A stretch of DNA of 64,000 nt from an uncultured Bifidobacterium sp. (GTDB taxonomy: Bacteria; Verrucomicrobiota; Verrucomicrobiia; Limisphaerales; JADLHS01), in the NCBI GenBank assembly GCA_964539515.1, contig CAZIJO010000003.1:21490-85489 (forward strand), written 5' to 3'. Below the pieces are notes generated by a model. It did no database searches and was not told the origin of the DNA. It was given only the letters and a program-made list of their open reading frames with translations. This document shows positions 22,395 to 45,463 of this stretch, piece by piece; position 1 is the stretch's first letter; the number at the start of each line of letters is the position of its first letter. Made by a program: the position numbers and the translations under genes.

Positions 22395-22508
22395 CAAAGT
22401 CCAAGAACTGAAGTCGGAAGTCTGACGCCCAAAGTCTAAAGTCAATTGTCTGCCGTGGCGTGGTCAGGTTTGGGACTTTAGGCTTCAGACTTTAGCCTTT
22501 AGCCTTTA
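22395..22508. repeat. heptamer-periodic inverted repeat (AAAGTC / GACTTT)
   Basis: caaagtc caagaac tgaagtc ggaagtc tgacgcc caaagtc taaagtc versus gacttta ggcttca gacttta gccttta gccttta. Confidence 0.75.
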
Positions 22509-22973
22509 AATAACGAAGTCGAGGGCGCTGGCGGGGGTCAGTTCGAGTTTGCGCGCGCGCTCGGCCAGATCGGCCAGCGTGACCCGCTCCATGATGGCAA
22601 CGATGGCGTCGCGCGTGTCCTTCATCACGCTCCGGATGGCGCAGCGGGATTCGTCGGGGCAGGAGCATTTCTCGTAAAAGTTCTCACTCACGCAGCTGAT
22701 CGGTGCGAGTGCACCCTCAATGTGGCGGACAATTTCCGCCAGGTTGATTTTATCGGGCCGCCGCCGCAGGCGATAACCACCCGCCACCCCGCGCTTGCTC
22801 TCAACCAAGTGGGCGGATTTGAGATCGTTGAGGATCTGTTCCAGGAAACGTTTCGGAATGTTCTGCTTCCGCGAGATTTCCTGAATGCGCACCACGGAGT
22901 CATCCTCCTGAAAGTCACGCGCCAGAACCAACAGCGCTCGTAGCGCGTATTCCCCACGAACGGATAGTTTCAT
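22506..22973 (-). CDS. Rrf2 family transcriptional regulator (CymR/IscR-like)
   Basis: MKLSVRGEYALRALL, IPKRFLEQIL, SKRGVAGGYRL; four Cys in C-x8-C-x-C-x5-C; C-terminus LDFVI; divergent from the sulfur operon. Confidence 0.93.
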   Translation of the reverse strand: MKLSVRGEYALRALLVLARDFQEDDSVVRIQEISRKQNIPKRFLEQILNDLKSAHLVESKRGVAGGYRLRRRPDKINLAEIVRHIEGALAPISCVSENFYEKCSCPDESRCAIRSVMKDTRDAIVAIMERVTLADLAERARKLELTPASALDFVI

Positions 22974-23067: not shown

Positions 23068-23093
23068 ATTGACTTAGTAGAGATTAAGTCTAT
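23068..23093 (+). promoter_or_regulatory. candidate Rrf2 operator overlapping a TTGACT -35-like hexamer
   Basis: ATTGACTTA-GTAGAGAT-TAAGTCTAT dyad in the AT-rich divergent intergenic region; the core GTAGAGATT recurs inverted at 22988-22996. Confidence 0.55.
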
Positions 23094-23121
23094 TCTGGTC
23101 GCGTTGTTACGAAAAATAGGT

Positions 23122-23310
23122 ATGAAAACAATCGAAAATTCAGCCAAAACACCAGTGGTGGCGAACCAGGAAACCTGGCTTGAAACGGTGCGTGCCCAAG
23201 TCGCTTCGTTGCGCTTTGGCGTTGTGCAGATTGTTGTTCATGATTCCCAGGTCGTACAGATCGAGCGCACCGAGAAAGTAAGGCTCGACCGTAAACCGTT
23301 GGAAGGGTAA
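23122..23310 (+). CDS. YezD/DUF2292 family small protein
   Basis: SLRFGVVQIVVHDSQVVQIERTEKVRL signature. Confidence 0.9.
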   Translation: MKTIENSAKTPVVANQETWLETVRAQVASLRFGVVQIVVHDSQVVQIERTEKVRLDRKPLEG

Positions 23311-23339
23311 TACCGGTCAGACCACCGAAGGATGATGGA

Positions 23340-25073
23340 ATGAGGAGAATCGCGAAAACAATCCTGTTTGGTTGGAACATGCCAGTCATGGTTTTAGCTG
23401 GCCTGTTGTCACCAGTTGGGGGGAAAGCCCAACCGGTATCTTCGAACACCGTTCCGGCTGCCACGCCCTCCTCCCAAGCGGTCCCTGCTGCCAACGGAGT
23501 TTCTCCGAGCCAGCCAGAACAATCGGAGCTGATCAAAGAACTGCTCGGTCGCTTGGAGCGGCTTGAAAACAAGGAGGCGGAGCAAAAGCAGCGGACCGAA
23601 GCCGCCGAGAAGGCACACCAGGAAGAGGTGCAGAAACTCCTCGGGCGCATCGGTGAACTCGAGGGCAAGGTCGGCTCCCTTGAGTCGGGCAAGGTCCTGC
23701 CCGAGATCGCGGTTTCCCCAAAGGATGGGCCGACAACGCAGGAGCTGGATCAGAAACTTCGGGTGATGGCGCGCAACGAGGAGCTGGCGGCAGAAGCCGC
23801 CGAGGCGCAAGCCGCCGCGCGCGCGAAGGAAACGCCGCGAATCACGGCCGGGGCGAATGGATTCGCCATCAGTTCGGCGGACACGAACTATGTGTTGAAG
23901 CTACGGGGTTTGGTGCAGGTGGATTCGCGTTCCTTTTTTGACGACAATCAATACCTCGAAGGCAATGATGGTTTTTATTTGCGGCGCGCCCGGCCCATTT
24001 TCGAGGGCACGCTCTTTCGTGATTTCGATTTCAATTTGACGCCCGATTTCGGCGGCAACAACGTCCAAATCTTTGATGCCTGGATGAATTACCGTTACCG
24101 GCCCGAGTTGCAGTTGAAGGCCGGAAAGTTCAAGAGCCCGGTCGGATTTGAAATGTTGCAATCCGTCGGCATGCTGCCGTTTAACGAGCGTTCGTTGGTC
24201 AGCAATTTTGTGCCGGCACGAACCCTCGGCCTCCAAATCTGGGGAGACATTGCCGGTGGAGCGGTAAGTTATGCCGCCGGGGTTTTTGATGGCTCCGGGG
24301 ATGCGCGAGTTGCGAGCAACAGCGATATCGATGATGCCAAGGAATTCGCGGGACGGCTTGGGTTTCAACCATTCAAGCAAAGCGCCACCACCATGCTGAC
24401 GGGACTTCGCTTGGGCGCGGGCGGGAGCTTCACCCAGGTGCGTTCCAATACCGCCAGCTTGCCGAACACGACGGGCGGAACTTTGCCCGGTTATGTGACC
24501 TCCGCCTTGCAACAATTCTTTGCCTACAATCCGGCGATCGGGACCGTATATGCCGACGGGGTTCACTGGCGGATTTCCCCCTATGCGGCCTACACCCTGG
24601 GACCATTTGGGCTGTTGGGGGAATACATCGTTGCCCAGCAGGGCGTGGTAAACAGTGTGACCGGGGCGCGCGAGGATTTGTTGGATTCGGCCTGGCAGCT
24701 TTCTGCGCAATGGGTGTTGACGGGTGAAGATGCCTCCTTCACTGGCATCGCGCCGAAGTCGCCATTTGATCCGCGGGCTGGAAAATGGGGAGCCTGGCAG
24801 CTCGTGGCCCGCTTTGCCCAGGCGGATCTTGATTCAGATGCTTTCCCCGTTTTCTCCGATCCCACGCTTTCGGCGCATTCGGCCATGAGTTGGGGAATTG
24901 GGCTGAACTGGTGGCTGAACCGGAATGTCCGGGTGCTTACGAGTTATTCCAGAACCTGGTTTGGCGGCGGGGGCGAGGTGAATCCGGTGTTCATCGGCAC
25001 CCACGTGCCCCCGGCCACGGTTACGCACCAGGACGAAAGCGTATTCATGACCCGGCTCCAGCTTGCGTTTTAA
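23340..25073 (+). CDS. OprO/OprP-family anion-selective porin with N-terminal coiled coil
   Basis: LRGLVQVD, FYLRRARPIFEG, DAWMNYRY, KAGKFKSPVGFE, ERSLV; ends LQLAF (beta-signal Phe). Confidence 0.88.
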   Translation: MRRIAKTILFGWNMPVMVLAGLLSPVGGKAQPVSSNTVPAATPSSQAVPAANGVSPSQPEQSELIKELLGRLERLENKEAEQKQRTEAAEKAHQEEVQKLLGRIGELEGKVGSLESGKVLPEIAVSPKDGPTTQELDQKLRVMARNEELAAEAAEAQAAARAKETPRITAGANGFAISSADTNYVLKLRGLVQVDSRSFFDDNQYLEGNDGFYLRRARPIFEGTLFRDFDFNLTPDFGGNNVQIFDAWMNYRYRPELQLKAGKFKSPVGFEMLQSVGMLPFNERSLVSNFVPARTLGLQIWGDIAGGAVSYAAGVFDGSGDARVASNSDIDDAKEFAGRLGFQPFKQSATTMLTGLRLGAGGSFTQVRSNTASLPNTTGGTLPGYVTSALQQFFAYNPAIGTVYADGVHWRISPYAAYTLGPFGLLGEYIVAQQGVVNSVTGAREDLLDSAWQLSAQWVLTGEDASFTGIAPKSPFDPRAGKWGAWQLVARFAQADLDSDAFPVFSDPTLSAHSAMSWGIGLNWWLNRNVRVLTSYSRTWFGGGGEVNPVFIGTHVPPATVTHQDESVFMTRLQLAF

Positions 25074-25108
25074 GTCCCTGACCTATGAAAGGAATCAATC
25101 AAGTGCAA

Positions 25109-26107
25109 ATGACCAAACTCATCACCCTTTTGGTAGCCGCTTTGGCGGCCTTGGGCTCGGGAGCGGGCGTAAATGCCAAGGACTTCAAGCTCCTCAACGT
25201 CTCCTATGACCCCACGCGCGAGCTCTACACGGAGTACAACGCCGCCTTCGCGAAGTTTTGGAAGGAAAAGACCGGTGACACCGTGAAGATTGATCAATCC
25301 CACGGCGGCTCGGGCAAACAGGCGCGCTCGGTGATGGAAGGACTCTCCGCCGATGTCGTCACCCTCGCGCTGGCTTACGACGTGGACGTCATTGCGGAGA
25401 AGGCGAGACTGTTCCCGGCCACGTGGCAAAAGCGATTGCCCGGCAATAGTGCGCCCTACACCTCGACGATCGTATTCCTGGTGCGCAAAGGGAATCCCAA
25501 AGGCATCAAAGATTGGAACGACCTCGTCAAGCCGGGCGTGGCGATTATTCCGGCCAATCCCAAAACCTCCGGGGCGGCCCGGTGGACGTATCTGGCGGCG
25601 TGGGGCTACGTGTTGAAAAACGGCGGGGACGAGGTGAAGGCGAAAGAATTTGTGGCAAAATTCTACAAGAACGTGCCTGTGCTCGATACCGGCGCGCGGG
25701 GAGCGACCACCACCTTCATCCAGCGCGAAATCGGCGATGTGCTTGTGGGCTGGGAGAACGAGGCGTTCCTTGCGCTCAAGGAATACGGGGCGGACAAATT
25801 CGAAATCGTTGTTCCGTCCGTCAGCATTCTGGCGGAGCCGCCGGTGACGGTCGTGGACAAGGTGGCGAAGAAAAAGGGCACCGAAGCCGTTGCCACGGCA
25901 TATCTCGAATATCTTTACTCGGATGAGGGCCAGGAAATTGCCGGACGGAACTTTTATCGTCCGCGTTCCGAAAAGGCGGCAGCGAAGTACGCCAGCCAAT
26001 TCACCAAGGTCAGTCTGTTCACGATTGATGAAGTGTTCGGTGGCTGGCAGAAGGCGCACAAGGCGCACTTTGCGGACGGCGGCTCCTTTGATCAGATCCA
26101 ACGCTGA
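25109..26107 (+). CDS. sbp: sulfate ABC transporter substrate-binding protein
   Basis: [54 protein letters not shown]-type motif, [11 protein letters not shown]. Confidence 0.95.
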
Positions 26108-26141: not shown

Positions 26142-27155
26142 ATGAACGTCACCGTTGCCGCAAAACGATTCGCGCTCGGAGCAATGGCCCTTGCTGCGGT
26201 GTCGTTGGCCGCGGCGGCGGAGACGAAGCTCTTGAATGCCTCATTCGACATTTCGCGTGAATTGTTCCAGCGCTACAACGAAGCCTTTGTGCGCCACTGG
26301 CAACAGGCAGGGGGCGCGAGCGTGGCGGTGAATCAGTCGCACGCCGGTTCTTCCAAGCAGGCGCGCGCGGTGATTGATGGCCTGGAGGCCGATGTGGTCA
26401 CTTTCAACCAGGTCACGGATGTGGAAGCGGTGGCCGAGCGTGGTCTGATCGCCCGCGACTGGCGCAAGCTGTTGCCGCATCAAAGTTCGCCTTTCAGCTC
26501 CACGATCGTGTTTCTGGTGCGCCAGGGAAACCCCAAGGGCATCAAGGACTGGAGCGACCTGGTGCAGCCCGGCATCTCGGTGATCGTGCCCAATCCGAAA
26601 ACCTCGGGCAACGGCCGTTACAGTTATTTGGCGGCGTGGGGATACGCGCTGAAGCAATCCGCCGGTGACGAGGCGAAGGCCCGCGAGTTTGTGGGGAAAC
26701 TGTTCGCGAACGTTCCCGTCCTCGACACCGGCGGTCGCGGTGCCACCACGACATTCGCCCAGCGCGAAATCGGCGATGTGCTGCTGACCTTCGAGGCGGA
26801 GGTGTATTTGACGGTGAAGGAATTTGGCGCGGGGAAATTCGAGGCGGTCGTGCCTTCGTGCAGTATTGAGGCCGACATGCCCGTGGCCGTAGTCCAAAAG
26901 GTGGTTGGCAAGCGCGGCACGGAGCAACTCGCACGCGCTTATCTCGAACACCTTTATTCGGACGAAGGGCAGGGGATCATTGCGGCCAATTATTATCGGC
27001 CCCGATCGCAAAAGGTTGCCGGGCAATACGCCGCCCAGTTCGGCAAGCTGGAGTTGTTCTCCGTCGAGAAAGTCTTTGGTGATTGGGCCAGCGCGCAAAA
27101 GACGCATTTCAGCGAGGGCGGCGTGTTCGACCAACTCTACAAAAAATCCAAGTGA
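26142..27155 (+). CDS. cysP: thiosulfate/sulfate ABC transporter substrate-binding protein (CysP-like)
   Basis: SFDISRELF, QSHAGSSKQAR, DVVTFNQVTDV and SGNGRYSYL match CysP rather than Sbp. Confidence 0.85.
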   Translation: MNVTVAAKRFALGAMALAAVSLAAAAETKLLNASFDISRELFQRYNEAFVRHWQQAGGASVAVNQSHAGSSKQARAVIDGLEADVVTFNQVTDVEAVAERGLIARDWRKLLPHQSSPFSSTIVFLVRQGNPKGIKDWSDLVQPGISVIVPNPKTSGNGRYSYLAAWGYALKQSAGDEAKAREFVGKLFANVPVLDTGGRGATTTFAQREIGDVLLTFEAEVYLTVKEFGAGKFEAVVPSCSIEADMPVAVVQKVVGKRGTEQLARAYLEHLYSDEGQGIIAANYYRPRSQKVAGQYAAQFGKLELFSVEKVFGDWASAQKTHFSEGGVFDQLYKKSK

Positions 27156-27157
27156 CC

Positions 27158-27982
27158 ATGAGCACGACCATGATTTCACGCTTCCCGGAAAAGCCGGCGG
27201 CAGCCCGCCTGCGTTCAGCCGGCGACGCCGTTGCGCCATTGGAGGCGCTGGCGGCCAGTTCGCCCAATTTGGTGGCGAATCACGAATTGCGCTTCGATCA
27301 GGCCGGTGAGTCCTATGTGTTGCCGCGTTACACTTATCTCGGGCTCCGCGGGGGCGACCGCCCCATCCGCATCGGCATTTTTGCCGGGATTCATGGCGAT
27401 GAGCCCGAGGGCGTGCGCGCGGCGGTGTTGTTTCTGAAGCTGCTGGAGAGCGTGCCCGAGGTGGCGCGAGGTTACTCCCTCACGGTCTATCCGGTTTGCA
27501 ACCCCACGGGCTACGAGGACAACACTCGCTTGTCACGCCGGGGCAGGGACCTGAACCGTGAATTCTGGACGAACTCGGGCGAGCCAGAGGTGAAACTTCT
27601 CGAAGCCGAGCTGGGCGCGCGTTCATTTGACGGCATCATCTCCCTGCACACGGACGATACCAGCGATGGTTTCTACGGTTATGCGCGGGGCGCCACATTA
27701 ACCAAACACCTGATCGAACCCGCCCTGGCCGCTGCCGAGCGGATTTTGCCGCGTAATGCTCGTGAGACCATCGACGGCTTTCGGGCGCGCAACGGAATCA
27801 TCTTGGAATGCTACCAAGGCGTCCTGAGCGCGCCGGCCAGTGCAAGTCCGCGTCCATTCGAAATCATCCTCGAAACGCCGCAGTCGCCCGCCCCCGAGGT
27901 CAAGGACGCCGCCTTCGTCGCGGCATTGCAAACCATCCTGCTCGAATACCGGAAGTTCATTGCCTACGCGCCCAACATTTGA
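27158..27982 (+). CDS. M14-family Zn metallopeptidase/deacylase (AstE/AspA-like), intact active site
   Basis: IHGDE, NPTG...R...DLNR, SLHTD, ILETP; no signal peptide; ends AYAPNI. Confidence 0.85.
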   Translation: MSTTMISRFPEKPAAARLRSAGDAVAPLEALAASSPNLVANHELRFDQAGESYVLPRYTYLGLRGGDRPIRIGIFAGIHGDEPEGVRAAVLFLKLLESVPEVARGYSLTVYPVCNPTGYEDNTRLSRRGRDLNREFWTNSGEPEVKLLEAELGARSFDGIISLHTDDTSDGFYGYARGATLTKHLIEPALAAAERILPRNARETIDGFRARNGIILECYQGVLSAPASASPRPFEIILETPQSPAPEVKDAAFVAALQTILLEYRKFIAYAPNI

Positions 27983-27992
27983 GCCCGCAACC

Positions 27993-28826
27993 ATGACGCT
28001 CGTGAACTCCAAACGGCACCCGGTCAAAGCGGCGAACGACTCGCGCCAGCCGGACCGGCTGTTGCGCTACTTCGATGCCGTCGCGGAAAAATCCGGCCAC
28101 CTGCTGAGCAAGGCGGTGAAGACGTTCGAGTCCGCTGGCGAACTCTATGGCCTCCCGCGTTTTATTTGGGCCGGGCCAGCGGGTGGTCATGACACGTTTC
28201 GCCTTGGCATTTTCGCCACGTTGAATGGCGATGAGCCGGAGGGCGCGTTTGCCCTGACGCGATTCATCGCGGGATTGGAACAAGCGCCCGAACTGGCGCG
28301 GGGCTATGCTTTCTCGATTTATCCGCTCTGCAACCCCACGGGCTTCGAGGACAACACCCGCCTCTCCCGTGCCGGCGCTGCGTTGAACCGTTTGTTCTGG
28401 ACCGAATCCGACGCGCCCGAAGTCCGCTTTCTCGAATCGGAAATCTGGATGCAGGCGTTTCACGGCATCCTCAACCTGCGCAGTGACGCGGAAACTGCGG
28501 GCGTTTATGGCTTCGCCTCGGGTGGGATCATCTCGCAGGCCTTGCTGCAACCCGCGCTTCAGGCGGCGGGAACCTTTCTCCCGCGCAATCGTCAACGCGA
28601 GATCGACGGCATCCCCGCCCGGCGCGGGATGGTGTATGCGGACATCTACAACGCCGCGCGCGGAGCGTTGCGCGCCGTGCCTGGCCTGGAGAATCCGCCG
28701 TTTGAAATTACCCTGGCCACACCGCGCGCGGCCGCGGTGCATCTGCAAGTCGAGGCGCTGAATGCGGCGTTGCTTGCCATCCTGTCCGAATTCCGCTCAT
28801 TACAGGCCTATGCCCAGAACATTTGA
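27993..28826 (+). CDS. M14-family paralog with degenerate active site
   Basis: Co-linear with paralog 1, but LNGDE (H>N), ALNR (D>A), LRSD (H>R), TLATP (E>A); ends AYAQNI. Confidence 0.82.
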   Translation: MTLVNSKRHPVKAANDSRQPDRLLRYFDAVAEKSGHLLSKAVKTFESAGELYGLPRFIWAGPAGGHDTFRLGIFATLNGDEPEGAFALTRFIAGLEQAPELARGYAFSIYPLCNPTGFEDNTRLSRAGAALNRLFWTESDAPEVRFLESEIWMQAFHGILNLRSDAETAGVYGFASGGIISQALLQPALQAAGTFLPRNRQREIDGIPARRGMVYADIYNAARGALRAVPGLENPPFEITLATPRAAAVHLQVEALNAALLAILSEFRSLQAYAQNI

Positions 28827-28846
28827 ACCACGACCAAGGTGAACCC

Positions 28847-29671
28847 ATGAAAACCACTGCGCTTGCCCCCGCCATCCGTGCCGGATTCAACCTGCGCGAG
28901 CGTCCCACGCTGGCCGATCTGTTGGCGCCCCTGGATCAACTCGCTGCCAAGTCGTCCAATCTGCTTGCCCGGCCCCTTGGGCAGTTTGAGCGCGATGGCC
29001 ACAGTTACGCGATGCCACGCTACATTTTCGTCGGCCCGCAAGGCGGGGATGTGCCGATTCCCGTCGGCATTTTCGCCGGCATCTATGGGGATGAACCGGA
29101 AGGAACACGCGCATTGGTGAAGTTCGCCCAATTGCTCGAAGCGCATCCCGAACTTGCCGCCGGGTATGTCCTGTTCCTCTATCCGGCTTGCAATCCCACC
29201 GGGCTCGCGGCGGGCACGGCGTTTTCCAGCCGCGGCAAGGACCTGAATCTTGAACTTGTGAAGATCTCTCACGAACCCGAGGCGCGCTGGTTGCAAAGTG
29301 AACTCGCGTCGCAACACCTGGAAGGCATCATCAAGCTGCACACCAAGGCCGGGAGCAATACCTTCTACGGGCTGGTTCGGGGCGAGACCCTTGCGCGCCA
29401 ACTGCTGGATCCCGCGCTGGCCGCCGCCGCGGAATTGTTGCCGGTGGCGGAGGACTCAGGCATCGAGGCGTTTCGCGCGCGGGATGTTTCCTACGACCAC
29501 TATGAAGGTGGATCGCCGACGGCGCCAGAAGCTCCGACGCGTCCGTTCGAGGTCATTCTCGAAACGCCCGGGCAGGTTCCGGCTTATCTTCGCGAATGGG
29601 CCTTCGTGCTGGCGCTACGTTCCATTCTGACCGAGTACCGGAAATTCCTCGCCTACGCTCCCAACCTTTGA
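28847..29671 (+). CDS. M14-family paralog, partly degenerate
   Basis: IYGDE (H>Y), DLNL (R>L); LHTK and ILETP retained; ends AYAPNL. Confidence 0.82.
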
Positions 29672-29697: not shown

Positions 29698-30663
29698 ATG
29701 CCTCGCATCTACAACAACATCACGGAAACGATCGGCAATACGCCGCTCGTGCGCTTGAATCGCACTGCGCAAAACCATGGCGCGGTCGCCGAGGTCCTGC
29801 TCAAACTGGAATTCTTCAATCCGCTGTCCAGCGTGAAGGACCGTATCGGGGTGGCGATGATTGATGACGCCCTGCAAACCGGGAAGATCAACCCGAGCAC
29901 GGTGCTCATCGAACCCACGAGCGGCAACACCGGCATCGCGCTCGCCTTCGTGGCGGCGGCCCGGGGACTGAAGTTGATTCTCACCATGCCCGAAACCATG
30001 AGCCTCGAACGCCGCAAGCTGCTCAAGATTCTTGGCGCAAAATTGGTCCTGACCGAGGGCCCAAAAGGGATGAAAGGCGCCATCGCCAAGGCCGAGGAAT
30101 TGCGCCAGCAGATTCCGAACAGCGTCATTCTTCAGCAGTTCTCCAATCCGTCGAACCCGGCGATTCATCGCAAGACCACGGCGGAGGAAATCTGGCGCGA
30201 CACGGACGGCAAAGTTGACTTTGTTGTCGCGGGTGTTGGAACGGGTGGGACGATCACCGGCGTGGCCGAAGTCATCAAGTCGCGCAAGCCTGCTTTCAAG
30301 GCAATCGCGGTTGAGCCGGTCAAATCGCCGGTCATTTCGGGCGGCCAGCCCGGCCCGCACAAGCTGCAGGGCATCGGCGCGGGTTTCATTCCGGACAATC
30401 TAAACGTGAAGATCGTGGACGAGGTCATCAAGGTGGATGAAGCCGAATCCGGCCCGGTGTCGAAGGAGATCAACCGCCTCGACGGGATTCCCGTTGGCAT
30501 TTCGAGCGGCGCCATTGTTTGGGCGGCGTTGCAAGTGGCAAAGCGCCCGGAGAACTTAGGCAAGCAGATTGTCGCCATCGTGCCGTCCGCCTCGGAACGT
30601 TATCTGTCATCGTGGCTGTTTGCCGACATTGATACGGAGAGCGACAAGCTCGATTTCGTCTAG
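29698..30663 (+). CDS. cysK: cysteine synthase A (O-acetylserine sulfhydrylase)
   Basis: [15 protein letters not shown] (PLP Lys), [41 protein letters not shown]. Confidence 0.96.
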
Positions 30664-30931: not shown

Positions 30932-31062
30932 GCGCTCGCTGATCCTCAGCCTGATTCGTTCCCGCCTTCGGTTGACACCGCTGGCTGCGGTGTCGTCGCG
31001 CCCGTGCGCGGTTGTTTCCCGTGTTTGACCTCATTGAGCACAGAAAACCAAACACAGTGAAA

Positions 31063-32049
31063 ATGAAATCAAATCAAAACCTGAAACCCATCCGCAGCGT
31101 CGCTGCGGTGGTGGGTGGTTTTGCCTGGTTCACCGGGGCGGCGTTCGCAGCGCCATTCCTGTACAGCTCGGGTGATCTCGTGCTGGCGTTCCGCCAGACC
31201 GGATCGGCGAGTGATTACGCCGTGAACATCGGCAAGGCTACCAACTATAACAACCTGCCGGGAGGTTCAACCTTCGCGGTTACCAACTTGTCCGTCTCCC
31301 AACTCGGTGCCGCTTTTCCGAGTGTGAACGAATTGAAGTGGTCCGTGGCGGGCGCCATTCGCACGGCGGGCAATCCAACCTATCCCATCCAGACCCTCTG
31401 GGTGAGCCGGCCCCGCGTGGATGCCGGCACGCCCAGCGCGCCCTGGTTGCGGCGCAGCACTTCGACCCAGGGCACCGCCGGCGCGCAGATTGACGCCGTC
31501 GGAGTGCGCGCTGCCAACGGCAGCAGTTTCCTCGCAGCCGGACCCAACAACACTGTGACCGGAGTCGTCTTGCCCGTGGCCAGCGACTTCAATCTCGGTC
31601 AAGTCATTGGCACGTTCGGTAATTATGACAACACGTTTCAGGGAAATGTGGAGAATCTCACCGCCGCTGATTTTGACGGTGCGCCTGAAAACGTTTCCCG
31701 CTCGGACTTGTATGAACTGTTGCCGGGCAACAGCGCGTTAAATCTGCCGGGACGCTTCCTGGGCTTCTTTGAACTGAAGCCCAACGGCGCGTTGACCTTC
31801 ACGGCGGCCTCCACGGTACTGCCGGCGCCGACAATCACCAGCATCACCCGCACCGGCGATGTCACCACCGTCTCCTTCACGACGGTTTCCGGCGGAACGT
31901 ATCGGTTACGGGCTACTAATGCAGCGGGATTGACCACGCCCGTCTCGACCTGGACCACTGGCAATTCCCTTGCGGGCACGGGCGGAGTGTTGTCGCTCAC
32001 GGACACCAATTCCGCCGACATCCGCTTCTTTGCGGTGGATGTGCAATAA
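31063..32049 (+). CDS. secreted Ser/Thr/Gly-rich protein with Verrucomicrobia-type C-terminal Ig-like domain; no Cys or Met after the start
   Basis: Signal peptide ending AFA-A; GDLVLAFR N-terminus; C-terminal PTITSITRTG...YRL...W...TDTN...RFFAV domain. Confidence 0.85.
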   Translation: MKSNQNLKPIRSVAAVVGGFAWFTGAAFAAPFLYSSGDLVLAFRQTGSASDYAVNIGKATNYNNLPGGSTFAVTNLSVSQLGAAFPSVNELKWSVAGAIRTAGNPTYPIQTLWVSRPRVDAGTPSAPWLRRSTSTQGTAGAQIDAVGVRAANGSSFLAAGPNNTVTGVVLPVASDFNLGQVIGTFGNYDNTFQGNVENLTAADFDGAPENVSRSDLYELLPGNSALNLPGRFLGFFELKPNGALTFTAASTVLPAPTITSITRTGDVTTVSFTTVSGGTYRLRATNAAGLTTPVSTWTTGNSLAGTGGVLSLTDTNSADIRFFAVDVQ

Positions 32050-32126
32050 CCTGAACCGAACTAAACAACTGAAAACGGAATTATCCCTATTTGAAATCGA
32101 AAACTTGAACCTTTGAGAGACTGATT

Positions 32127-33203
32127 ATGAAAACGACAAACTTACTGATAATTGCGGCGGGCGCGGTGCTCGCTGTCACCAGCGCGCAGGCGCAGGTGGA
32201 AATCAACATCTCCGGCGCGGTGGCCTTTCGTGATACGTCCTATCGTGCCATCCGGGCGCTCTATGGAGCAAATCTCGCGTCGGAGAATAACCTCACCCCG
32301 CCGCCCTCTTCACTAAAGGTGACGTGGACGGGGCAGATCACGAACTTGTTCGGCAATCAAACTGTCACCATCCGCACGTTCTACAACGGGGCCAACGCCG
32401 GCATCCAGGACCTGGTGCAGAATCGTAACGTCAACTACCTGGCGTCTTCGACCCCGGGAGGCACCTCCACGGTGAATCTCCAGTCGGACCTGGCGTATTC
32501 CTCGGTATTCCAGGCATCCACGCCATATACCTCGCCCGCCCTGGAAGATGTGCGCTTTGGTCTCACGCCGGTCTTTTTCGTCAAGAGCACCAGTGCTCCG
32601 GCGGGATTGACCAACATCACCGTGCAACAATTCCGCACGCTGGCAGCCAACGGTTCCGTTCCCGGTTGGTTTCTGACCGGCAACACCAATGATACCGCAC
32701 CCATCTACTACGTCAGCCGCGACCCGAGTGCTGGTCAGCGGACGATCATCGAACGCGAACAGGGATTCTACGGCAACGCGATCTTCTACAACTGGAACCC
32801 TGCTACGACCCAGTTCGATCCTGATCCCACCGGGCGCACGTCCACGCAGATTCGCGACCTGCTGAACATCTCCGGCCCGGCAGTCAGTTATTTGACCGGA
32901 GTGGACGCGGTGAACGTCAATGGCGGGGCCAATATCCTGGCTTTGAATGGCTTTCGGCCGGTGTTGAATCCTTACAACTCCGTCAGCAACAATCACGCGC
33001 CGGTCATCAACGGCCAATACACGCAGTGGGGCTATGAGCACATCTTCATTCGGACCACCGCATCGGCCAACCTCCGCAACTTCCGTAATGCGCTGATTGC
33101 GAAGATTGATGAGGACCTGCAAACCTCCGCTTACTCAATTCCGCTGAGTCGCGCCCGGGTCGAGCGCTCGGCGCAAGGTGGCCCGGTCTCGCCCCTTGAT
33201 TAA
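32127..33203 (+). CDS. secreted PstS-like (PBP-fold) solute-binding protein; no Cys or Met after the start
   Basis: Signal peptide ending AQA-Q; ISGAVAFR, GANAGIQ, VSRDPSAGQR and YTQWGYEH resemble PBP/PstS-fold motifs. Confidence 0.65.
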   Translation: MKTTNLLIIAAGAVLAVTSAQAQVEINISGAVAFRDTSYRAIRALYGANLASENNLTPPPSSLKVTWTGQITNLFGNQTVTIRTFYNGANAGIQDLVQNRNVNYLASSTPGGTSTVNLQSDLAYSSVFQASTPYTSPALEDVRFGLTPVFFVKSTSAPAGLTNITVQQFRTLAANGSVPGWFLTGNTNDTAPIYYVSRDPSAGQRTIIEREQGFYGNAIFYNWNPATTQFDPDPTGRTSTQIRDLLNISGPAVSYLTGVDAVNVNGGANILALNGFRPVLNPYNSVSNNHAPVINGQYTQWGYEHIFIRTTASANLRNFRNALIAKIDEDLQTSAYSIPLSRARVERSAQGGPVSPLD

Positions 33204-33269
33204 GTAATACTCGTTGCCGCCGGCGCGGGTCCCTGGCCCGCGCCGGCTTCTGCCCGAGCGACCATACGA

Positions 33270-35768
33270 ATGGAGCCATCTTCAAGATTCAATCGAATGC
33301 CGGGTCTGCAAACCGGAGTTCTGATTATGACCGCCCTGCTCATCGCCGCCCGCTTCAGCGGAACAATGGCGCTGGCGCAGTCCACCAATGCGCCGATCGT
33401 TCCCAGCTATCAGGTCGCGCGCTATGAACTCGATAGTCCGGTGCTCACTCCGGCGGACGTGGAACGGTTGACGGCCGACGCAACCGGTGATGCCGTGACC
33501 GTGGCGGAAATCCGGCGCGCCCTGAACCGATTGCAAACCGCCTTGCGCGAGCGCGGCTATCGACAGGCGGCATTGACGTTGCCACAGCAAGCGCTCACCA
33601 ATGGCGTGGTGCGCGTGCGGGTGTGGGAAGGTCCGGCGCCGGGCCAGGCCGCGCCGGCGGCGACCCCGCCGGTGGAACTGCCGGCGTTGGCTGCGCCGGC
33701 CTACGACATCCGCCACTTTGAAATTCACGGCAACACCAAGCTTTCGCCGGAGGCGATCGACCGCATTCTCGGTCCGGCGGCCGGGCCGTCGGCCAATCTT
33801 GATGCGTTGCGCGAAGCGCTGGTGAAACTGCGTGACGCTTACCGCGAGCGCCGCCTGCCGCTGGCCACGGTCACCGTTCCGGAACAATTGCTGACCGATG
33901 GCACGATTGTCATCCAGGTGAACGAGGGTTGGGATCCCGAGGCGGAAGCGCTCGCCAAAGCACAAACCGTGACGCCAACCAATGTTCCAGCCACTCCCCC
34001 CGAGCGCACGTTTGAGGTGCGTCGTTATGAAGTGCTGGGCAACACGTTGCTCGCCCCGGCTGCAATTGATGCCATCGTCACCAATGGCGTTGGCACGAAC
34101 GTCACGTTCACGCAGGTGCGGAAGGTTCTCGGGGATCTGCAACTCGCCTATCGCGAGCGCGGTTTTGCCAGCGCCAGCGTAGCGCTGCCGCCCCAGCAAC
34201 TCACCAACGCCACCATCAAAATCCAAGTCACCGAAGGCGTGCTCGTGGATGCGCGCGTGACCGGCAATCGCTATTTCAGTTCCAACAACGTCATGCGCGC
34301 TTTGCCGTCGGTGGCCAACGCGCTCATCTGGAAGGACGAGGTAATCAACAGTCGCGTGTTGCAGCGTGAACTGGACCTCGCGAATCAGAACCGGGACCGG
34401 CAGATTTATCCGGTCCTCAATCCCGGCCCCGACCCGGGCACGACCGCCTTGGATTTGCGGGTGAAGGACCGCTTGCCCTTGCACGGGCGATTGGAGCTCA
34501 ACAATCAATCGACCCCCGGCACGCCGGACTGGCGGCTCAACGCCTCTGCTAATTACAACAACCTCTGGCAACGGGAGCACGCTGTTGGCATTTTCTATGG
34601 ATTCACCCCCGAGGAGTTCAAAGTCCCGCAGCCAGACCCGGATTACTTTTTCAACCGGCCGCTCGTGGCGAACTTCGGCGCTTATTACCGCATTCCGTTT
34701 GGCGAGCCGCAATCGGTGCAGGAGATCATCAGCGGCAACCGCAACTTTGGCTTTGACGAGGCGACCAAGCAGTTCCGCCTGCCGCCACCGGGCAGCCGGC
34801 CGGACCTGACATTCTCCGTCAGTGGTTCTTCCAGCGACACTGGTGTCAATTACGGCCCGACCACCGTGGTTTCCCAGACGCCGTTGCTGACGATTCTCTC
34901 CCGGGACAGCGGCCAGGATTTGAACTTAAATCAAAGCGCTGGCTACAACCTCAATCTGCCGCGCGCTTTGAGTGACACCCGCCGCCTCAACTTCTCCCTC
35001 GGCATGGACTGGAAGCGCAGCGAGAAGGAGAGTTACAACACGAACAACTTTCTGATCATTACCGTCATCACCAATTCCCAAGGGTCGCAGATTATTACCA
35101 GCGAGGTGTCGTCGCCACAGCCCCCGCGCAAGACCGAGGTCAACTATCTGCCGCTTAACTTCGGGTTCAGTTTCGCGGATGCAAGTCCGAAAGCCACCTT
35201 GTTTGCCAGCGTGGTCTTGAGCGCCAATTTTCTGGGCAACGACTCTGATTTTGTTGCCGCCTCGTACACCCCTGAAGCGCAGGCGGAATATGCGAAGGCC
35301 GTCTTTGCGCTGAGCTACGATCGCAAAGTGTTCAACGACTGGTCGCTGTTGTGGCGACTCAATGGGCAGGCGGCGACGGGACCGTTGATCAACAACGAAC
35401 AATTTGCCGTCGGCGGCATCAACAGCGTGCGGGGCTATTATGAGGGCGATGAGTACGGAGACGTCGGTTGGTTTACCAGTGCGGAGCTGCGCACGCCATA
35501 CCTTGCCACTGAAGCCGGAGTGGTGGATGGCTTCACGCCGGTTTGGTTGCGGGGTTCGATATTTCTCGACGCCGGCCAGCCGATCTATCTCGACGATGTT
35601 CCTTGGGTCGCGCCGGACCGCTTTCTCTGGAGCACGGGTTTTGGCCTCTCAGCAAACATCAACAACCACTTTGACGCGAAAGTTGCAGTCGGTTGGCCGC
35701 TGGCCGACTCCGCCAACACCCAGGCTTATCAACCGCGCGTGCTCTTCTCATTGGGAGGACAGTTTTGA
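33270..35768 (+). CDS. ShlB/FhaC/HecB-family two-partner-secretion outer-membrane transporter (TpsB)
   Basis: Repeated POTRA motifs (YRERG...LPxQ.LT.G...I.V.EG), PGPDPGTT, conserved VRGY loop; ends LGGQF. Confidence 0.92.
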   Translation: MEPSSRFNRMPGLQTGVLIMTALLIAARFSGTMALAQSTNAPIVPSYQVARYELDSPVLTPADVERLTADATGDAVTVAEIRRALNRLQTALRERGYRQAALTLPQQALTNGVVRVRVWEGPAPGQAAPAATPPVELPALAAPAYDIRHFEIHGNTKLSPEAIDRILGPAAGPSANLDALREALVKLRDAYRERRLPLATVTVPEQLLTDGTIVIQVNEGWDPEAEALAKAQTVTPTNVPATPPERTFEVRRYEVLGNTLLAPAAIDAIVTNGVGTNVTFTQVRKVLGDLQLAYRERGFASASVALPPQQLTNATIKIQVTEGVLVDARVTGNRYFSSNNVMRALPSVANALIWKDEVINSRVLQRELDLANQNRDRQIYPVLNPGPDPGTTALDLRVKDRLPLHGRLELNNQSTPGTPDWRLNASANYNNLWQREHAVGIFYGFTPEEFKVPQPDPDYFFNRPLVANFGAYYRIPFGEPQSVQEIISGNRNFGFDEATKQFRLPPPGSRPDLTFSVSGSSSDTGVNYGPTTVVSQTPLLTILSRDSGQDLNLNQSAGYNLNLPRALSDTRRLNFSLGMDWKRSEKESYNTNNFLIITVITNSQGSQIITSEVSSPQPPRKTEVNYLPLNFGFSFADASPKATLFASVVLSANFLGNDSDFVAASYTPEAQAEYAKAVFALSYDRKVFNDWSLLWRLNGQAATGPLINNEQFAVGGINSVRGYYEGDEYGDVGWFTSAELRTPYLATEAGVVDGFTPVWLRGSIFLDAGQPIYLDDVPWVAPDRFLWSTGFGLSANINNHFDAKVAVGWPLADSANTQAYQPRVLFSLGGQF

Positions 35769-41279: not shown

Positions 41280-41283
41280 GCAA

Positions 41284-42499: not shown

Positions 42500-43327
42500 A
42501 TGGAACAAAAGAAATTCAATGTCATGCCCGGCTTCGGTCTGACGATGGGCTTTACGCTCTTCTATTTGAGCGCGATTGTGCTCATTCCCATCGGCGCGAT
42601 CGTGCTCAAGACGCTTGGCATTCCGTGGAGCGAGTTCTGGCGGTTGGCGACGACCGACCGGGCGCTGGCAGCCTACAAACTCACCTTCGGAGCCTCGTTG
42701 GTCGCGGCGTTTGCGAACGCCGTTTTCGGCACGTTGCTTGCCTGGGTGCTGACGCGGTACGAATTTCCCGGACGCCGGTTCATCGATGCCATGGTGGATT
42801 TTCCCTTCGCCCTGCCAACCGCGGTGGCGGGGCTGACCCTGGCCAGCCTTTTCGCGGCCAACGGCTGGCTGGGAAAATACCTGGTGCCGTTGGGAGTCAA
42901 GGGCGCTTTCACCCCGCTGGGGGTCATCATTGCGTTGACCTTCGTCGGAATGCCGTTTGTCGTGCGCACGCTCCAACCGGTGATTGAGAACTTCGAACGC
43001 GAGGTCGAGGAATCGGCCGCGACGCTGGGGGCCGGGCGGCTGCGAACGTTTTTGACCGTGATTGCCCCGTCGCTGCTGCCATCCATCATCACGGGTTTCG
43101 CGCTGGCGTTTGCCCGGGCAATTGGCGAATACGGGTCCATCGTTTTTATTTCCAGCCACCACCGGTACGTGGACGAGATTGTTCCGTTCCTGATTGTCGA
43201 ACACCTGGATCAATTCGAGCATGCCGGGGCCATGACGCTGGCGGTGGTGCTATTGATCTTCTCGTTTGCCTTGCTCGGAGTCATCAATGTGCTCGAACAG
43301 TGGGCCAACAAGTTTGTGAAGGGATGA
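42500..43327 (+). CDS. cysT: sulfate ABC transporter permease CysT
   Basis: PGFGLTMG, DAMVDFPFALPTAVAG, PFVVRTLQPV, EESAATLGA, RAIGEYGS. Confidence 0.95.
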   Translation: MEQKKFNVMPGFGLTMGFTLFYLSAIVLIPIGAIVLKTLGIPWSEFWRLATTDRALAAYKLTFGASLVAAFANAVFGTLLAWVLTRYEFPGRRFIDAMVDFPFALPTAVAGLTLASLFAANGWLGKYLVPLGVKGAFTPLGVIIALTFVGMPFVVRTLQPVIENFEREVEESAATLGAGRLRTFLTVIAPSLLPSIITGFALAFARAIGEYGSIVFISSHHRYVDEIVPFLIVEHLDQFEHAGAMTLAVVLLIFSFALLGVINVLEQWANKFVKG

Positions 43328-43427
43328 GCGCTACTTTTCAAAAGGCTGATCTTTGTCTCCCCGCCGGGTTCAAGTCGCCAGTACTTTGCAGAGTAGATCG
43401 TTTGCGGTCGGATTAACGGACGCTTAA

Positions 43428-44363
43428 ATGGCTGGCATTACCAAAAAACAATGGGCCGGAGGGCGCAAGAAATCGCAACGCGGGACGGAAGAATCCCCGT
43501 TTGCGAAATGGACGCTCATTGCCCTGGCGATGCTGTTTTGCCTGGTTTTTCTGCTCCTGCCGCTGATCAACGTGTTTGCGCAGGCGTTTGCCAAAGGTTG
43601 GACGGCTTACTGGTCCGCGCTGACGCATCCGGATTCCTGGTCGGCGATCAAACTCACCCTGCTGGTGGCGGCGATCAGCGTGCCGTTGAATGTGCTGTTC
43701 GGGCTCGCGGCCGCCTGGGCGATTGCCAAGTTCGAGTTTCGCGGCAAGGCGCTGCTCATCACCTTGATCGATCTGCCCTTCTCGGTTTCGCCGGTGGTGG
43801 CGGGCTTGATGTTCATCGTGTTGTTTGGTCTGCAGGGTTTTTTTGGCGAATGGCTGAACGATCATGACTTCAAAGTCATTTTTGCGGTACCCGGGATTGT
43901 GCTGGCGACGGTGTTCATCACCTTCCCGTTCGTGGCCCGGGAGTTGATCCCCGTGATGCAGGCGACCGGCACGGACCAGGAGCAGGCGGCCCTCACCCTG
44001 GGCGCCAACGGCTGGCAGACTTTCTGGCACGTCACGCTGCCGTCCGTAAAGTGGGGGCTGATCTACGGGATTATTTTGTGCAACGCCCGCGCGATGGGCG
44101 AATTCGGCGCCGTGTCGGTGGTGAGCGGTCACATCACCGGGCAGACGGATACAATGCCTTTGCGGGTGGAGAAACTTTACAACGAGTATCAGGGGCCGGC
44201 GGCTTTCGCCGTCGCCAGTCTCCTGGCGATGCTGGCGCTGGTAACATTGGCTATCAAAACCTTCCTGGAATGGAAGCAGCACCGGGAATTTGAACTCGCC
44301 CAGCAGGCGACGCTGGGGGAGACCGGCGACACGGTTTTCCTGGCGCAACCCAAATCTGAATGA
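43428..44363 (+). CDS. cysW: sulfate ABC transporter permease CysW
   Basis: LIDLPFSVSPVVAG, FPFVARELIP, ARAMGEFGAVSVVSG, TMPLRVE. Confidence 0.95.
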   Translation: MAGITKKQWAGGRKKSQRGTEESPFAKWTLIALAMLFCLVFLLLPLINVFAQAFAKGWTAYWSALTHPDSWSAIKLTLLVAAISVPLNVLFGLAAAWAIAKFEFRGKALLITLIDLPFSVSPVVAGLMFIVLFGLQGFFGEWLNDHDFKVIFAVPGIVLATVFITFPFVARELIPVMQATGTDQEQAALTLGANGWQTFWHVTLPSVKWGLIYGIILCNARAMGEFGAVSVVSGHITGQTDTMPLRVEKLYNEYQGPAAFAVASLLAMLALVTLAIKTFLEWKQHREFELAQQATLGETGDTVFLAQPKSE

Positions 44364-45463
44364 GCATCGAACTGAAAGGCGTCACCAAGAAATTCGGCGA
44401 GGTCACCGCCGTGAATGATGTCAATTTCTCCGTCAACGACGGGGAATTGATGGCCTTGCTGGGGCCCAGCGGCGGCGGCAAGACGACGGTGCTGCGGATG
44501 ATTGCGGGCCTCGAAGTGCCGACCGAAGGGGACATCTTCGTCCGGGGCGAGCGGGTGAACGATGTGCCGGTGCAGAAGCGCAACATCGGGTTCGTCTTTC
44601 AGAGTTACGCGCTGTTCAAGAGCATGACGGTGTTCAAAAACATTGCCTTCGGTCTGAAGATAAAAAAGTGGAAGCCGGCGGAGGCCGAGGCCCGGGTGAT
44701 GGAATTATTGCAACTTTTTGGTCTGGCCGGCCTGGAGAATCGTTATCCGCACCAGCTATCCGGCGGGCAGCGGCAACGCGTGGCCATCGCCCGCTCCCTG
44801 GCGCCCAAGCCCGGCGTGCTGTTGCTGGATGAACCGTTTGGCGCCGTGGACGCAAAGATCCGCCAGGAGTTGCGCGAGTGGCTCGTGACCCTGCACCACG
44901 AGCTGAATGTGACTACGATTTTCGTCACGCACGACCAGGAGGAAGCGATGGAAGTTTCGAATCGCATCGTGATTTTCTCGAAGGGAAATCTCGAACAGAT
45001 CGGGACGCCGCGCGAAGTCTATGAACAACCGGCGAACGAATTCGTGGCGCGCTTTGTAGGTGTAATGAACGTCCTCGACACCGAGGTGTCGGGGGGCGTC
45101 GCCCGGATCAATGAAATGGCGTTTCCGGCCGGTGGTCACGCCGACGGCATGCGCCTGCGGATAGGTTTCCGGCCGTACGCGGTGCAGGTTTCCAATGATC
45201 TGGCCCTGCTTCCCTATCGCGCCGTATTGCGGCACACTTTCTTCCTCGGAATCCTGCTACGGCTCGAATTGGAACTGGCCTCCGGCCTGATCATTCGTAG
45301 CCGTATGACAAAGGAAGAATATGCCCAGCTGGGCCTGGTTGACGGTCGGGAGGTGTCGTTTCAAATCAAAAGTTACCGTGTGCTGGCGAGCGAAGATGCC
45401 CGGCTGGCGCCGGAGTTGGAGGCGACGTACCAAGCCCCGCCAACCATCGGCGAGCACATTTGA
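44360..45463 (+). CDS. cysA: sulfate ABC transporter ATP-binding protein CysA
   Basis: GPSGGGKT Walker A, FVFQSYALF, LSGGQRQRVA, LLLDEPFGA, THDQEEA; TOBE-like tail. Confidence 0.95.
   Translation: MSIELKGVTKKFGEVTAVNDVNFSVNDGELMALLGPSGGGKTTVLRMIAGLEVPTEGDIFVRGERVNDVPVQKRNIGFVFQSYALFKSMTVFKNIAFGLKIKKWKPAEAEARVMELLQLFGLAGLENRYPHQLSGGQRQRVAIARSLAPKPGVLLLDEPFGAVDAKIRQELREWLVTLHHELNVTTIFVTHDQEEAMEVSNRIVIFSKGNLEQIGTPREVYEQPANEFVARFVGVMNVLDTEVSGGVARINEMAFPAGGHADGMRLRIGFRPYAVQVSNDLALLPYRAVLRHTFFLGILLRLELELASGLIIRSRMTKEEYAQLGLVDGREVSFQIKSYRVLASEDARLAPELEATYQAPPTIGEHI

Follow-up and report, generated by a model that had tools for sequence, protein, structure and literature searches.

The closest characterized relative of the proteins described here is SO_3749 of Shewanella, a genetically proven N-acetylornithine deacetylase whose N-acetyl amino acid deacetylase activity was shown by argE cross-complementation (PMC3219624). 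The equivalog model NF052223 and the structures 2qvp, 3b2y and 3ieh would correspond to SO_3749, judging by the name of the model. Proteins of this type are about 275 aa long, consist of a single M14-like domain without signal peptide, and stand in an arginine-synthesis context in which no degenerate paralogs have been reported. Other enzymes to be compared are AstE, ASPA and DoeB (PF24827), which are zinc-dependent N-acyl amino acid hydrolases, as well as Francisella REP34 (4oko) and the classical M14 carboxypeptidases. In animals, inactive M14 homologs such as CPXM1/2 and AEBP1, which are secreted multidomain proteins, have kept the M14 fold under selection after loss of their catalytic residues. 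As regards cysK, which is adjacent to the genes studied here, CysE, CymR and CdiA-CT dock into the CysK active site through a free C-terminal aliphatic residue. The terminal Ile of the H. influenzae CysE tail (...MNLNI) accounts for about 80% of the CysK binding energy (PMC9547175), and Ile is the last residue of every known CysK partner (bioRxiv 10.1101/2024.09.19.614015). Literature searches on M14/aspartoacylase-family genes, whether from Verrucomicrobia or from operons for sulfate or cysteine, yielded nothing relevant.

The locus lies in a 64,000-nt stretch of Verrucomicrobiota DNA, hereafter the window. As described in the first-pass annotation, three same-strand M14-type genes follow each other directly upstream of cysK: P1 (27158..27982, + strand, 274 aa), P2 (27993..28826, + strand, 277 aa, with its ATG at 27993 and not at 27990) and P3 (28847..29671, + strand, 274 aa). 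The downstream gene (29698..30663, + strand) was identified as cysK, encoding O-acetylserine sulfhydrylase A, by TIGR01139 (445 bits versus a cutoff of 351). Upstream of the trio, and also on the + strand, are a small DUF2292 gene heading the operon (23122..23310; PF10055, 60 bits), a gene for an anion-selective outer-membrane porin of the Porin_O_P family (23340..25073; PF07396, 112 bits), and two genes for sulfate/thiosulfate-binding proteins that share 60% identity, SbpA (25085..26107; NF008022, 524 bits) and SbpB (26142..27155; TIGR00971, 461 bits). The DUF2292 gene recurs at the same position in related loci, where the position of the porin gene is conserved as well. Intergenic gaps are short (2 nt between sbpB and P1, 10 nt between P1 and P2, 20 nt between P2 and P3, 26 nt between P3 and cysK), and promoter-like and terminator-like sites across the cluster were no commoner than in shuffled sequence, so that nothing in this promoter/terminator scan, used for that purpose alone, contradicts a single operon. 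The cysT-cysW-cysA genes for the sulfate ABC permease and ATPase (42500..45463, + strand; 81-84% identity to L081 cysTWA by tblastn) are separated from cysK by a 12-kb block, whereas in relatives they directly follow the M14-like gene or cysK. A regex search found no cysE in the window.

Divergent from the operon is a gene for an Rrf2-family regulator (22506..22973, - strand; Pfam Rrf2, 134.5 bits) with the tail ...ALDFVI. It scores 84 bits with the NCBIfam CymR model and 87 bits with IscR, both below their cutoffs, and is probably a CymR-like repressor of the operon. No inverted repeat that could serve as an Rrf2 operator palindrome was found within 22960-23345. At the related loci, 48/50 of the neighboring Rrf2 regulators carry CysE/CymR-like Ile tails.

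The three proteins are paralogs sharing an M14/AstE-like fold and 39-50% identity (P1/P2 45%, P1/P3 49-50%, P2/P3 39%), with paralog-versus-paralog tblastn E-values of 1e-43 to 1e-77, far beyond chance; tblastn revealed no fourth copy in the window. The motifs originally read for each of them proved correct. P1 has HGDE, DLNR, LH and ILETP and a complete catalytic set (H79, E82, R124, R127, D131, N133, R134, H164, E239), and judged by these residues it is an intact enzyme. P2 has NGDE, ALNR, LR and TLATP, and through H79N, D131A, H164R and E239A has lost two zinc His, one Asp and the catalytic Glu, while it retains the carboxylate-binding R124, R127, N133 and R134. From these replacements, metal binding and the general base are predicted to be gone in P2 and the whole carboxylate-binding set kept. 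P3 has YGDE, DLNL, LH and ILETP, and through H79Y and R134L, together with R124A and R127S, two losses that had not been listed before, lacks one zinc His and three substrate-binding Arg. It keeps E82, D131, H164 and E239, that is, two predicted metal ligands and the predicted general base, with the carboxylate-binding arginines gone. The zinc-ligand set His-x-x-Glu plus distal His was thus found in P1 alone, P2 having N79/E82/R164 and P3 Y79/E82/H164. Likewise, the general-base Glu (equivalent to Glu270) and the Asn-Arg pair (equivalent to 144/145) occur together in P1 (E239, N133-R134), whereas P2 combines Asn-Arg with A239, and P3 combines E239 with N133-L134. Alignment of the three paralogs shows that the losses of P2 and P3 are complementary. 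All three are full length, without a hydrophobic signal-peptide core in a direct reading of their N-termini, and end almost identically (AYAPNI, AYAQNI and AYAPNL), as had been noted. Their Cys+Met content is low (0.7-1.1%), similar to that of Sbp and CysK.

Regarding the fold, PF24827 (AstE/AspA catalytic domain) is the best Pfam match for all three paralogs, over profile positions 4-126 of 192 only. P1 (38.1 bits) and P2 (26.6 bits) pass its gathering threshold of 25 bits, but P3 (19.1 bits) does not. With Peptidase_M14 (PF00246), P1 reaches 17.7 bits, below the gathering threshold of 21.6, and P2 and P3 give no match. The AF2 model of P1 (pLDDT 87.4, pTM 0.87) retrieved 4oko, 2qvp, 3b2y and 3ieh at the top of the Foldseek ranks, with TM 0.70-0.75 to the first three, followed by the classical carboxypeptidases (A, B, D, M and N, E about 1e-9 to 1e-10). 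REP34 is the top match (TM 0.72-0.75) and has the same zinc- and carboxylate-binding residues, but is only about 21% identical, and the proteins of the window, in contrast to REP34 and the classical carboxypeptidases, are predicted to be cytoplasmic. The SO_3749-type entries are the best PDB matches by sequence (E 1e-11 to 1e-8; TM about 0.7). A PDB profile search matched the family to the 275-aa Shewanella proteins along most of the chain (residues 52-266 of 275) and placed HxxE, NR, H and E at corresponding positions, a register confirmed against 2qvp and 3b2y. These alignments end 9-14 residues short of the C-terminus, leaving the terminal Ile or Leu outside the aligned part. The identity is about 22-25%, and the NF052223 scores (38 bits for P1, 33 for P2, 18 for P3) are so far below the cutoff of 400 that an inference of substrate by homology is weak.

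Zinc-dependent N-acyl amino acid hydrolase chemistry, as in AstE, ASPA and DoeB, is plausible for P1. However, P1-P3, with a single domain of 274-277 aa, lack the beta-domain that AstE and ASPA carry at their C-terminus, the score with NF002601 is 17 bits versus a cutoff of 180, and the DoeB and AstE structures rank far below REP34 and the small Shewanella proteins in Foldseek; an assignment to aspartoacylase/AstE proper was rejected. Names such as "MpaA" and "murein peptide amidase" in JGI records were discarded as automatic labels, P1 scoring 17 bits with the MpaA murein tripeptide amidase model (NF007897; cutoff 157). We consider P1-P3 to be members of an uncharacterized subfamily of putative M14/AstE-like zinc amidohydrolases, small (about 275 aa), cytoplasmic and single-domain, found essentially in Verrucomicrobiota only.

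Gene context was counted at 80 genome loci from species-level relatives and on 14 contigs (L-numbers are locus codes). The M14-like gene belongs to the core of the Verrucomicrobiota sulfate-uptake/cysteine-synthesis operon, whose order is Rrf2 on one side and DUF2292, porin, Sbp, the M14-like gene, CysK at some loci, CysT, CysW and CysA on the other. Sbp lies immediately upstream of the M14-like gene in 56/74 loci, and the gene immediately downstream is cysK in 32/82 and cysT in 23/82, the tie to the sulfate ABC transporter being at least as strong as that to cysK. The family is usually single-copy, with one intact copy in 79/80 genome loci, and the intact signature HEDNRHE was found in 80/84 genomic copies and in 275/349 protein clusters. 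Absence of P2 and P3 from relatives, which the first-pass annotation had named as evidence against its interpretation, does apply to 79/80 species-level relatives (L001 has P2).

Decay, which it had named beside absence, was not observed. In the recommended dN/dS comparison of the window with L084, values were 0.078 for P1, 0.106 for P2 and 0.063 for P3. Over all comparisons every paralog lay at 0.06-0.16 (P2 0.08-0.15, P3 0.06-0.16) at dS 0.6-1.3, similar to Sbp; purifying selection on P2 and P3 is as strong as on P1. Residue conservation, followed per paralog, showed that P2-type and P3-type proteins each form one monophyletic clade on a long branch, with a conserved degenerate signature and newly gained clade-specific invariant motifs. 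The P2-type clade comprises 53 protein clusters, 44/53 with the exact signature NEANRRA, and the P3-type clade 23 clusters, R134 being absent from 23/23. Since their dN/dS equals that of P1 and their signatures are conserved, P2 and P3 are conserved pseudoenzymes and not decaying genes; catalytic loss, purifying selection and cross-lineage conservation, the criteria for pseudoenzymes, were all found in both. In this respect the first-pass interpretation is supported: both degenerate paralogs exist as complete genes and are under purifying selection. Most relatives do without them. The alignments and clades indicate that P2 and P3 arose through two duplications inside one lineage, after which complementary halves of the active site were lost.

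Where the degenerate copies occur, no contig examined shows an interrupted reading frame, and the order P1-P2-P3 is kept in at least nine further contigs, at identities down to 64-73%. Trios were found at L081/L082, L083, L084, L089, L090 and L092 and on contigs 8389 and 3202; at L091, which is cut, part of P2, then P3 and cysK are visible. Pairs of an intact and a P2-type gene occur at L001, L085, L093 and L094. Since L001 has P2 without P3, and L092 lacks cysK, the trio with cysK is not an obligate unit. In all examined loci but one, the P2-type gene lies directly behind an intact copy and is separated from it by at most 10 nt, a constant place that fits a functional partnership.

Altogether, we propose that P1 is an active N-acyl hydrolase of the sulfate operon and that P2 and P3 are its non-catalytic partners, a reading to which we give a probability of about 0.5. 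As a core gene of a sulfate/cysteine operon, the M14-like gene would be expressed when sulfur is limiting. Its nearest characterized relative, the SO_3749-type deacetylase, taken together with the gene context, suggests that P1 hydrolyzes a small N-acylated amino acid, or removes a C-terminal residue, in a reaction tied to the supply of serine or cysteine; the most economical candidates are N-acetylserine and N-acetylcysteine. A precedent comes from Bacillus, whose sulfur-salvage clusters include N-acetylcysteine deacetylases (PMC12757645). P2 and P3 would be either subunits of a heteromer or ligand-binding or regulatory proteins, with P2 possibly the older and more obligate partner of the intact enzyme. 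The two further ideas of the first-pass annotation, a hetero-oligomer of P1-P3 and a putative release of cysteine from N-acyl- or gamma-glutamyl-cysteine compounds by P1, are plausible; indirect evidence for the hetero-oligomer comes from the conserved order and adjacency of the genes, to which L086 is the one exception.

Alternatively, P2, and perhaps P3, could act on its own as a binding or sensor protein instead of being a subunit of P1. With its former active site remodeled to bind a small anionic ligand, be it O-acetylserine, an acyl-amino acid or a sulfur oxyanion, it would regulate uptake or CysK. The one exception in gene arrangement speaks for this: at L086, a lone P2-type gene stands between sbp and cysT in an sbp-cysTWA operon, and the surrounding 8 kb contain no intact copy, so that P2 is apparently able to work without an adjacent P1. 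In the protein itself, all four carboxylate-binding residues are kept, an Arg has been gained at the zinc-His position, a conserved 4-residue loop insertion is present, and long clade-invariant motifs (ESEIWMQAFHG, PARRGMVY, LRAVPGL) lie near the pocket. These are exactly the regions of which AF2 is unsure: the P2 model is poor (pLDDT 55, especially near the former active site), too poor for a fold comparison, which may be due to a shallow alignment (22 sequences, 61-87% identical) and which would leave room for a remodeled pocket that has acquired its own function. However, the other examined loci keep the P2-type gene right behind an intact copy, and at L093 the two have moved together outside any sulfate cluster; we hold independence of P2 from P1 to be rather unlikely.

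The C-termini raise another possibility, namely that the free terminal Ile or Leu enters the CysK active site as do the tails of CysE, CymR and CdiA-CT. The M14-like proteins would then work as enzymes or regulators bound to CysK, with P2 and P3 as additional ligands of it. Indeed, conservation of the tail exceeds that of the active site and extends to the dead paralogs: 345/349 protein clusters and 57/61 of the 50%-identity representatives end in Ile or Leu at an identical position, and about 95% of family members, active and dead alike, do so, in most cases with Asn in front. P1 and P2 share the -NI ending of H. influenzae CysE, confidence in the P1 model is low for the final four residues (pLDDT 55), as expected of a free tail, cysK is the next gene at 32/82 loci, and tail docking is probably used at the locus, given the clear CysK-type tails of the adjacent Rrf2 regulators. 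Yet those same regulators, with their strict Ile (48/50), illustrate how a constraint by CysK shows itself at these loci, and known CysK partners always end in Ile, while in the M14-like family Leu predominates (203 -NL versus 142 -NI clusters, 58% Leu), Ile and Leu exchange among close relatives, and Leu is enriched next to cysK, where 33 of the copies lying immediately upstream have it as their last residue and 3 have Ile. In addition, only about three residues extend beyond the predicted last helix of P1. Because Leu predominates and is enriched next to cysK, CysK docking by the family tail appears unsupported; we demoted it to a rival reading and regard it as unlikely.

A further view, more doubtful still, places the family in a circuit of C-terminal tails around CysK. 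P1 would be a cytoplasmic carboxypeptidase recognizing or trimming the Ile tails of the CymR-like Rrf2 repressor and of CysE, or else the intact enzyme would itself dock in CysK. P2, which lacks the metal site and the general base while its carboxylate-binding site is complete, would serve as a non-cleaving tail trap. If true, this would add a proteolytic or competitive control layer over Verrucomicrobiota sulfur assimilation. Finally, that P2 and P3 are functionless pseudogenes on their way to loss would agree with the single intact copy sufficing for most relatives (79/80 genome loci) and with the absence of P3 from L001, but is already contradicted by the intact frames, the dN/dS of 0.06-0.16 at dS 0.6-1.3, the degenerate signatures conserved over 53 and 23 clusters and the new invariant motifs of each clade, and is hardly credible.

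With P1 as the enzyme and P2 and P3 as its proposed non-catalytic partners, the finding concerns an uncharacterized gene embedded in an operon type that ranks among the best understood in bacteria, and this throughout a phylum whose members abound in soil and fresh water. The presence of such a core gene in the sulfate operon implies that Verrucomicrobiota sulfur assimilation includes something beyond the textbook pathway. The Ile tails of the Rrf2 regulators suggest that control of the CymR-CysK type, to our knowledge described so far from Firmicutes, also operates in Verrucomicrobiota. Unlike the animal CPXM1/2 and AEBP1, the trio is bacterial, apparently cytoplasmic and operon-encoded, it sits beside an intact paralog, and its losses are complementary in two copies. 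It offers a clean natural case of an enzyme that gave rise to two dead paralogs, one keeping the binding and the other the catalytic machinery, and a good system to study how bacterial pseudoenzymes arise and why they are retained.

P1 (27158-27982), P2 (27993-28826, with its ATG at 27993) and P3 (28847-29671), the three tandem M14/AstE-like paralogs, are ORFs of the same strand (+) separated by 10 and 20 nt, respectively; the stop of the preceding sulfate-binding-protein (Sbp) gene lies 2 nt from the P1 start, and 26 nt separate the end of P3 from cysK. They share 39-50% pairwise identity (tblastn E 1e-43 to 1e-77), and no fourth copy was found by tblastn within the 64-kb window. On the AstE/AspA catalytic domain model PF24827 (gathering score 25 bits), P1, P2 and P3 scored 38, 27 and 19 bits, and P1 weakly matched the Peptidase_M14 model. 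The motifs listed by the first-pass annotation were recovered exactly in the ORF translations (HGDE, DLNR, LH and ILETP in P1; NGDE, ALNR, LR and TLATP in P2; YGDE, DLNL, LH and ILETP in P3). Its other two observations were also borne out, as none of the three N-termini is signal-peptide-like and the C-termini are nearly identical (AYAPNI, AYAQNI and AYAPNL).

For P1, AlphaFold2 gave a confident model (pLDDT 87.4, pTM 0.87) from an alignment of 25 family members. Foldseek returned as best matches Francisella REP34 (4oko) and the Shewanella structural-genomics proteins 2qvp, 3b2y and 3ieh (275 aa, TM 0.70-0.75), with the classical carboxypeptidases A, B, D, M and N ranking next. In a PDB search with the family profile, the alignment to the Shewanella proteins spanned positions 52-266 of 275 and placed the family's HxxE, N-R, His and Glu in register, which validates the catalytic-residue assignment. 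The top NCBIfam model was the Shewanella-type N-acetylornithine deacetylase (38 bits vs a cutoff of 400), an enzyme, SO_3749, known from genetic work (PMC3219624), and the name MpaA found in source records was rejected (17 bits vs a cutoff of 157). P1 thus belongs, as an intact member, to a small, single-domain, cytoplasmic M14/AstE-like amidohydrolase branch and is not the equivalog of any characterised enzyme.

We observed that the losses in P2 and P3 are complementary. P2 retains R124, R127, N133 and R134 (P1 numbering), the substrate-carboxylate holders of M14 enzymes, but two histidine zinc ligands (N79, R164) are gone, as are D131 and the general base (A239); the loop preceding its last strand is longer by a conserved 4-residue insertion, and its former pocket is ringed by long invariant motifs specific to the P2 clade. 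P3 retains E82, D131, H164 and E239, with H79 and all three arginines gone. Since the P2 alignment was shallow, the low confidence of the P2 AlphaFold model (pLDDT 55, lowest at 75-80, 111-161 and 207-239) was taken as evidence of nothing.

The comparison set comprised 80 loci of species-level genomes, nearly all Verrucomicrobiota MAGs, and 14 metagenome contigs (L handles). Because 79 of the 80 genome loci hold a single M14-like copy and the full signature (H79, E82, D131, N133, R134, H164, E239) is present in 80/84 aligned copies (the three window paralogs and 81 from the loci), the triplication is a lineage-specific elaboration. Nor is the trio an accident of the window's genome: the order P1-P2-P3, mostly followed by cysK, recurs in L084 (87-90% identity), L081/L082 and L083 (64-73%), L089, L090, L092 (without cysK) and two more contigs identified via shared protein clusters. 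L091, a contig cut short, has a P2 fragment followed by P3 and cysK, and L001, the closest species-level genome, has P1 and P2 without P3 or cysK.

With P1, P2 and P3 as queries, 349 protein clusters were retrieved and sorted by the residues at 79, 82, 131, 133, 134, 164 and 239. The canonical group (275 clusters) reads HEDNRHE; the P2-type group (53) reads NEANRRA in 44 clusters and single-site variants in the remainder; R134 is absent from all 23 P3-type clusters, 13 being YEDNLHE and 4 HEDNLHE, the latter retaining the first His. By neighbour joining, the P2 and P3 types each formed one long-branched clade with no canonical members within, the P2 clade being sister to canonical single-copy genes ending in ...IAANI and the P3 clade to the canonical protein P0141. 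The latter is the second of two tandem canonical copies, alongside one of the ...IAQNI type, upstream of cysK-cysT-cysW in L087 (1-997), a locus that represents a precursor of the multi-copy arrangement in which all copies are active. Since P0141 is canonical and itself tandem to another canonical copy, the duplications preceded degeneration.

Pairwise dN/dS (Nei-Gojobori, unsaturated dS) for P1, P2, P3, Sbp and CysK was 0.078, 0.106, 0.063, 0.090 and 0.034 between the window and L084, and 0.086, 0.076, 0.134, 0.091 and 0.046 between L081 and L083. Two of the checks proposed by the first-pass annotation, selection and residue conservation, thus favoured the degenerate paralogs: P2 (0.076-0.106) and P3 (0.063-0.134) stay near P1 and Sbp, and their signatures are conserved, so that they are conserved pseudoenzymes and are not decaying. 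That annotation had regarded absence or decay in relatives as damaging; the two are indeed absent from 79 of the 80 species-level loci (L001 has P2), but the loci that carry them show no decay.

Concerning the operon, a minus-strand Rrf2 regulator gene (22506-22973) precedes plus-strand genes for a 62-aa DUF2292 protein that opens the operon (23122-23310), Porin_O_P (23340-25073), Sbp A (25085-26107), Sbp B (26142-27155), P1-P2-P3 (27158-29671) and CysK (29698-30663); cysTWA (42500-45463) lies 12 kb beyond cysK. The recurrent order in the retrieved loci is Rrf2, DUF2292, porin, Sbp, M14-like, [cysK], cysT, cysW, cysA. The gene directly 5' of the M14-like gene is Sbp in 56/74 loci and the one directly 3' is cysK in 32/82 and cysT in 23/82; the family is thus embedded in a sulfate ABC-transporter operon, so that a position upstream of cysK is not the whole of its context. 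The low Cys+Met content of P1-P3 (0.7-1.1%), as in Sbp and CysK, is loosely compatible with synthesis under sulfur limitation.

The DUF2292 gene heads many related loci as well. The tandem Sbp A and B share 60% identity; a single Sbp is the rule among relatives, and L057, L089 and L094 have two. The 12-kb block parting cysK from cysTWA (31012-42404), genes that in many relatives (e.g. L087, L083) lie side by side or almost so, encodes two unknown proteins (345 and 358 aa), TpsB (ShlB/POTRA), TpsA (1418 aa) and ExbB-ExbD-TonB-ExbD. In L001, L084, L085 and L089-L092, the first four genes of the block come after the M14-like genes, whether or not cysK intervenes, and five of its products that we checked have very low Cys+Met (0-0.6%).

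Every trio, like the pairs of L001, L085, L093 and L094, has a P2-type gene immediately after an intact copy (gap <=10 nt); from this linkage, P2 most likely partners an intact enzyme. L093 (6077-7837) is the most telling case because its pair is not part of a sulfate or cysteine cluster; a DUF6600 gene and a glucose/sorbosone dehydrogenase-like gene flank it. L086 alone departs from this linkage: its single P2-type gene (8001-8915; NEANRRA, ending in ...IAQHI) sits between sbp and cysT-cysW-cysA, and an intact copy is absent within 8 kb. P3 would have been added later and be easier to dispense with. The first-pass interpretation is supported in part: the paralogs are functional non-enzymes travelling with an intact enzyme, with which they may form a heteromer and which may release cysteine.

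Asn-Ile or Asn-Leu precedes the stop codon in 345/349 clusters, and Ile or Leu occupies the same end position in 57/61 diverse representatives (clustered at 50% identity). As the degenerate types retain this tail, it is under more constraint than the active site. The last helix of the P1 model extends as far as residue 273, and confidence is low for the four terminal residues. Docking of the tail in CysK was considered because CysE, CymR and CdiA-CT dock there by a free C-terminal Ile; it is not supported, given that Leu is commoner (203 clusters -NL vs 142 -NI), that Ile and Leu exchange between close relatives, and that, among copies immediately 5' of cysK, the terminal residue is Leu in 33 and Ile in 3. 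Speculatively, the Ile-or-Leu tolerance would fit an M14 S1' pocket, the tail then docking in a partner subunit, no less well than it fits CysK.

The most defensible candidate function for the trio is that of an N-acyl-amino-acid or C-terminal hydrolase induced by sulfur limitation and accompanied by two non-catalytic paralogs. Deacetylases in sulfur salvage have precedents in Bacillus, but these belong to the M20 family (PMC12757645).

Finally, we compared the Rrf2 regulators of the window and of L002-L081. A free C-terminal Ile is present in 48/50 of those adjoining these operons, with tails reading ...G[EAD]GI in 39 (mostly ...GGEGI) and ...D[YF][VSIN]I in the remainder; the window regulator ends in ...ALDFVI. 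The LDFV shared with the CysK end in the window (...DKLDFV) is probably due to chance, since CysK C-termini differ among relatives. The Rrf2 tails closely resemble known CysK-docking tails, of which those of CysE and CymR plug the active site of CysK, namely ...GDGI of E. coli CysE, ...MFYI and ...DYII of S. aureus CymR and CysE, and the M. tuberculosis peptide DFSI. By this likeness, the regulators are probably CymR-like with CysK as co-regulator, in which case the operon would be responsive to the supply of O-acetylserine and sulfide, and their Ile tails suggest CymR-CysK-type regulation in Verrucomicrobiota.
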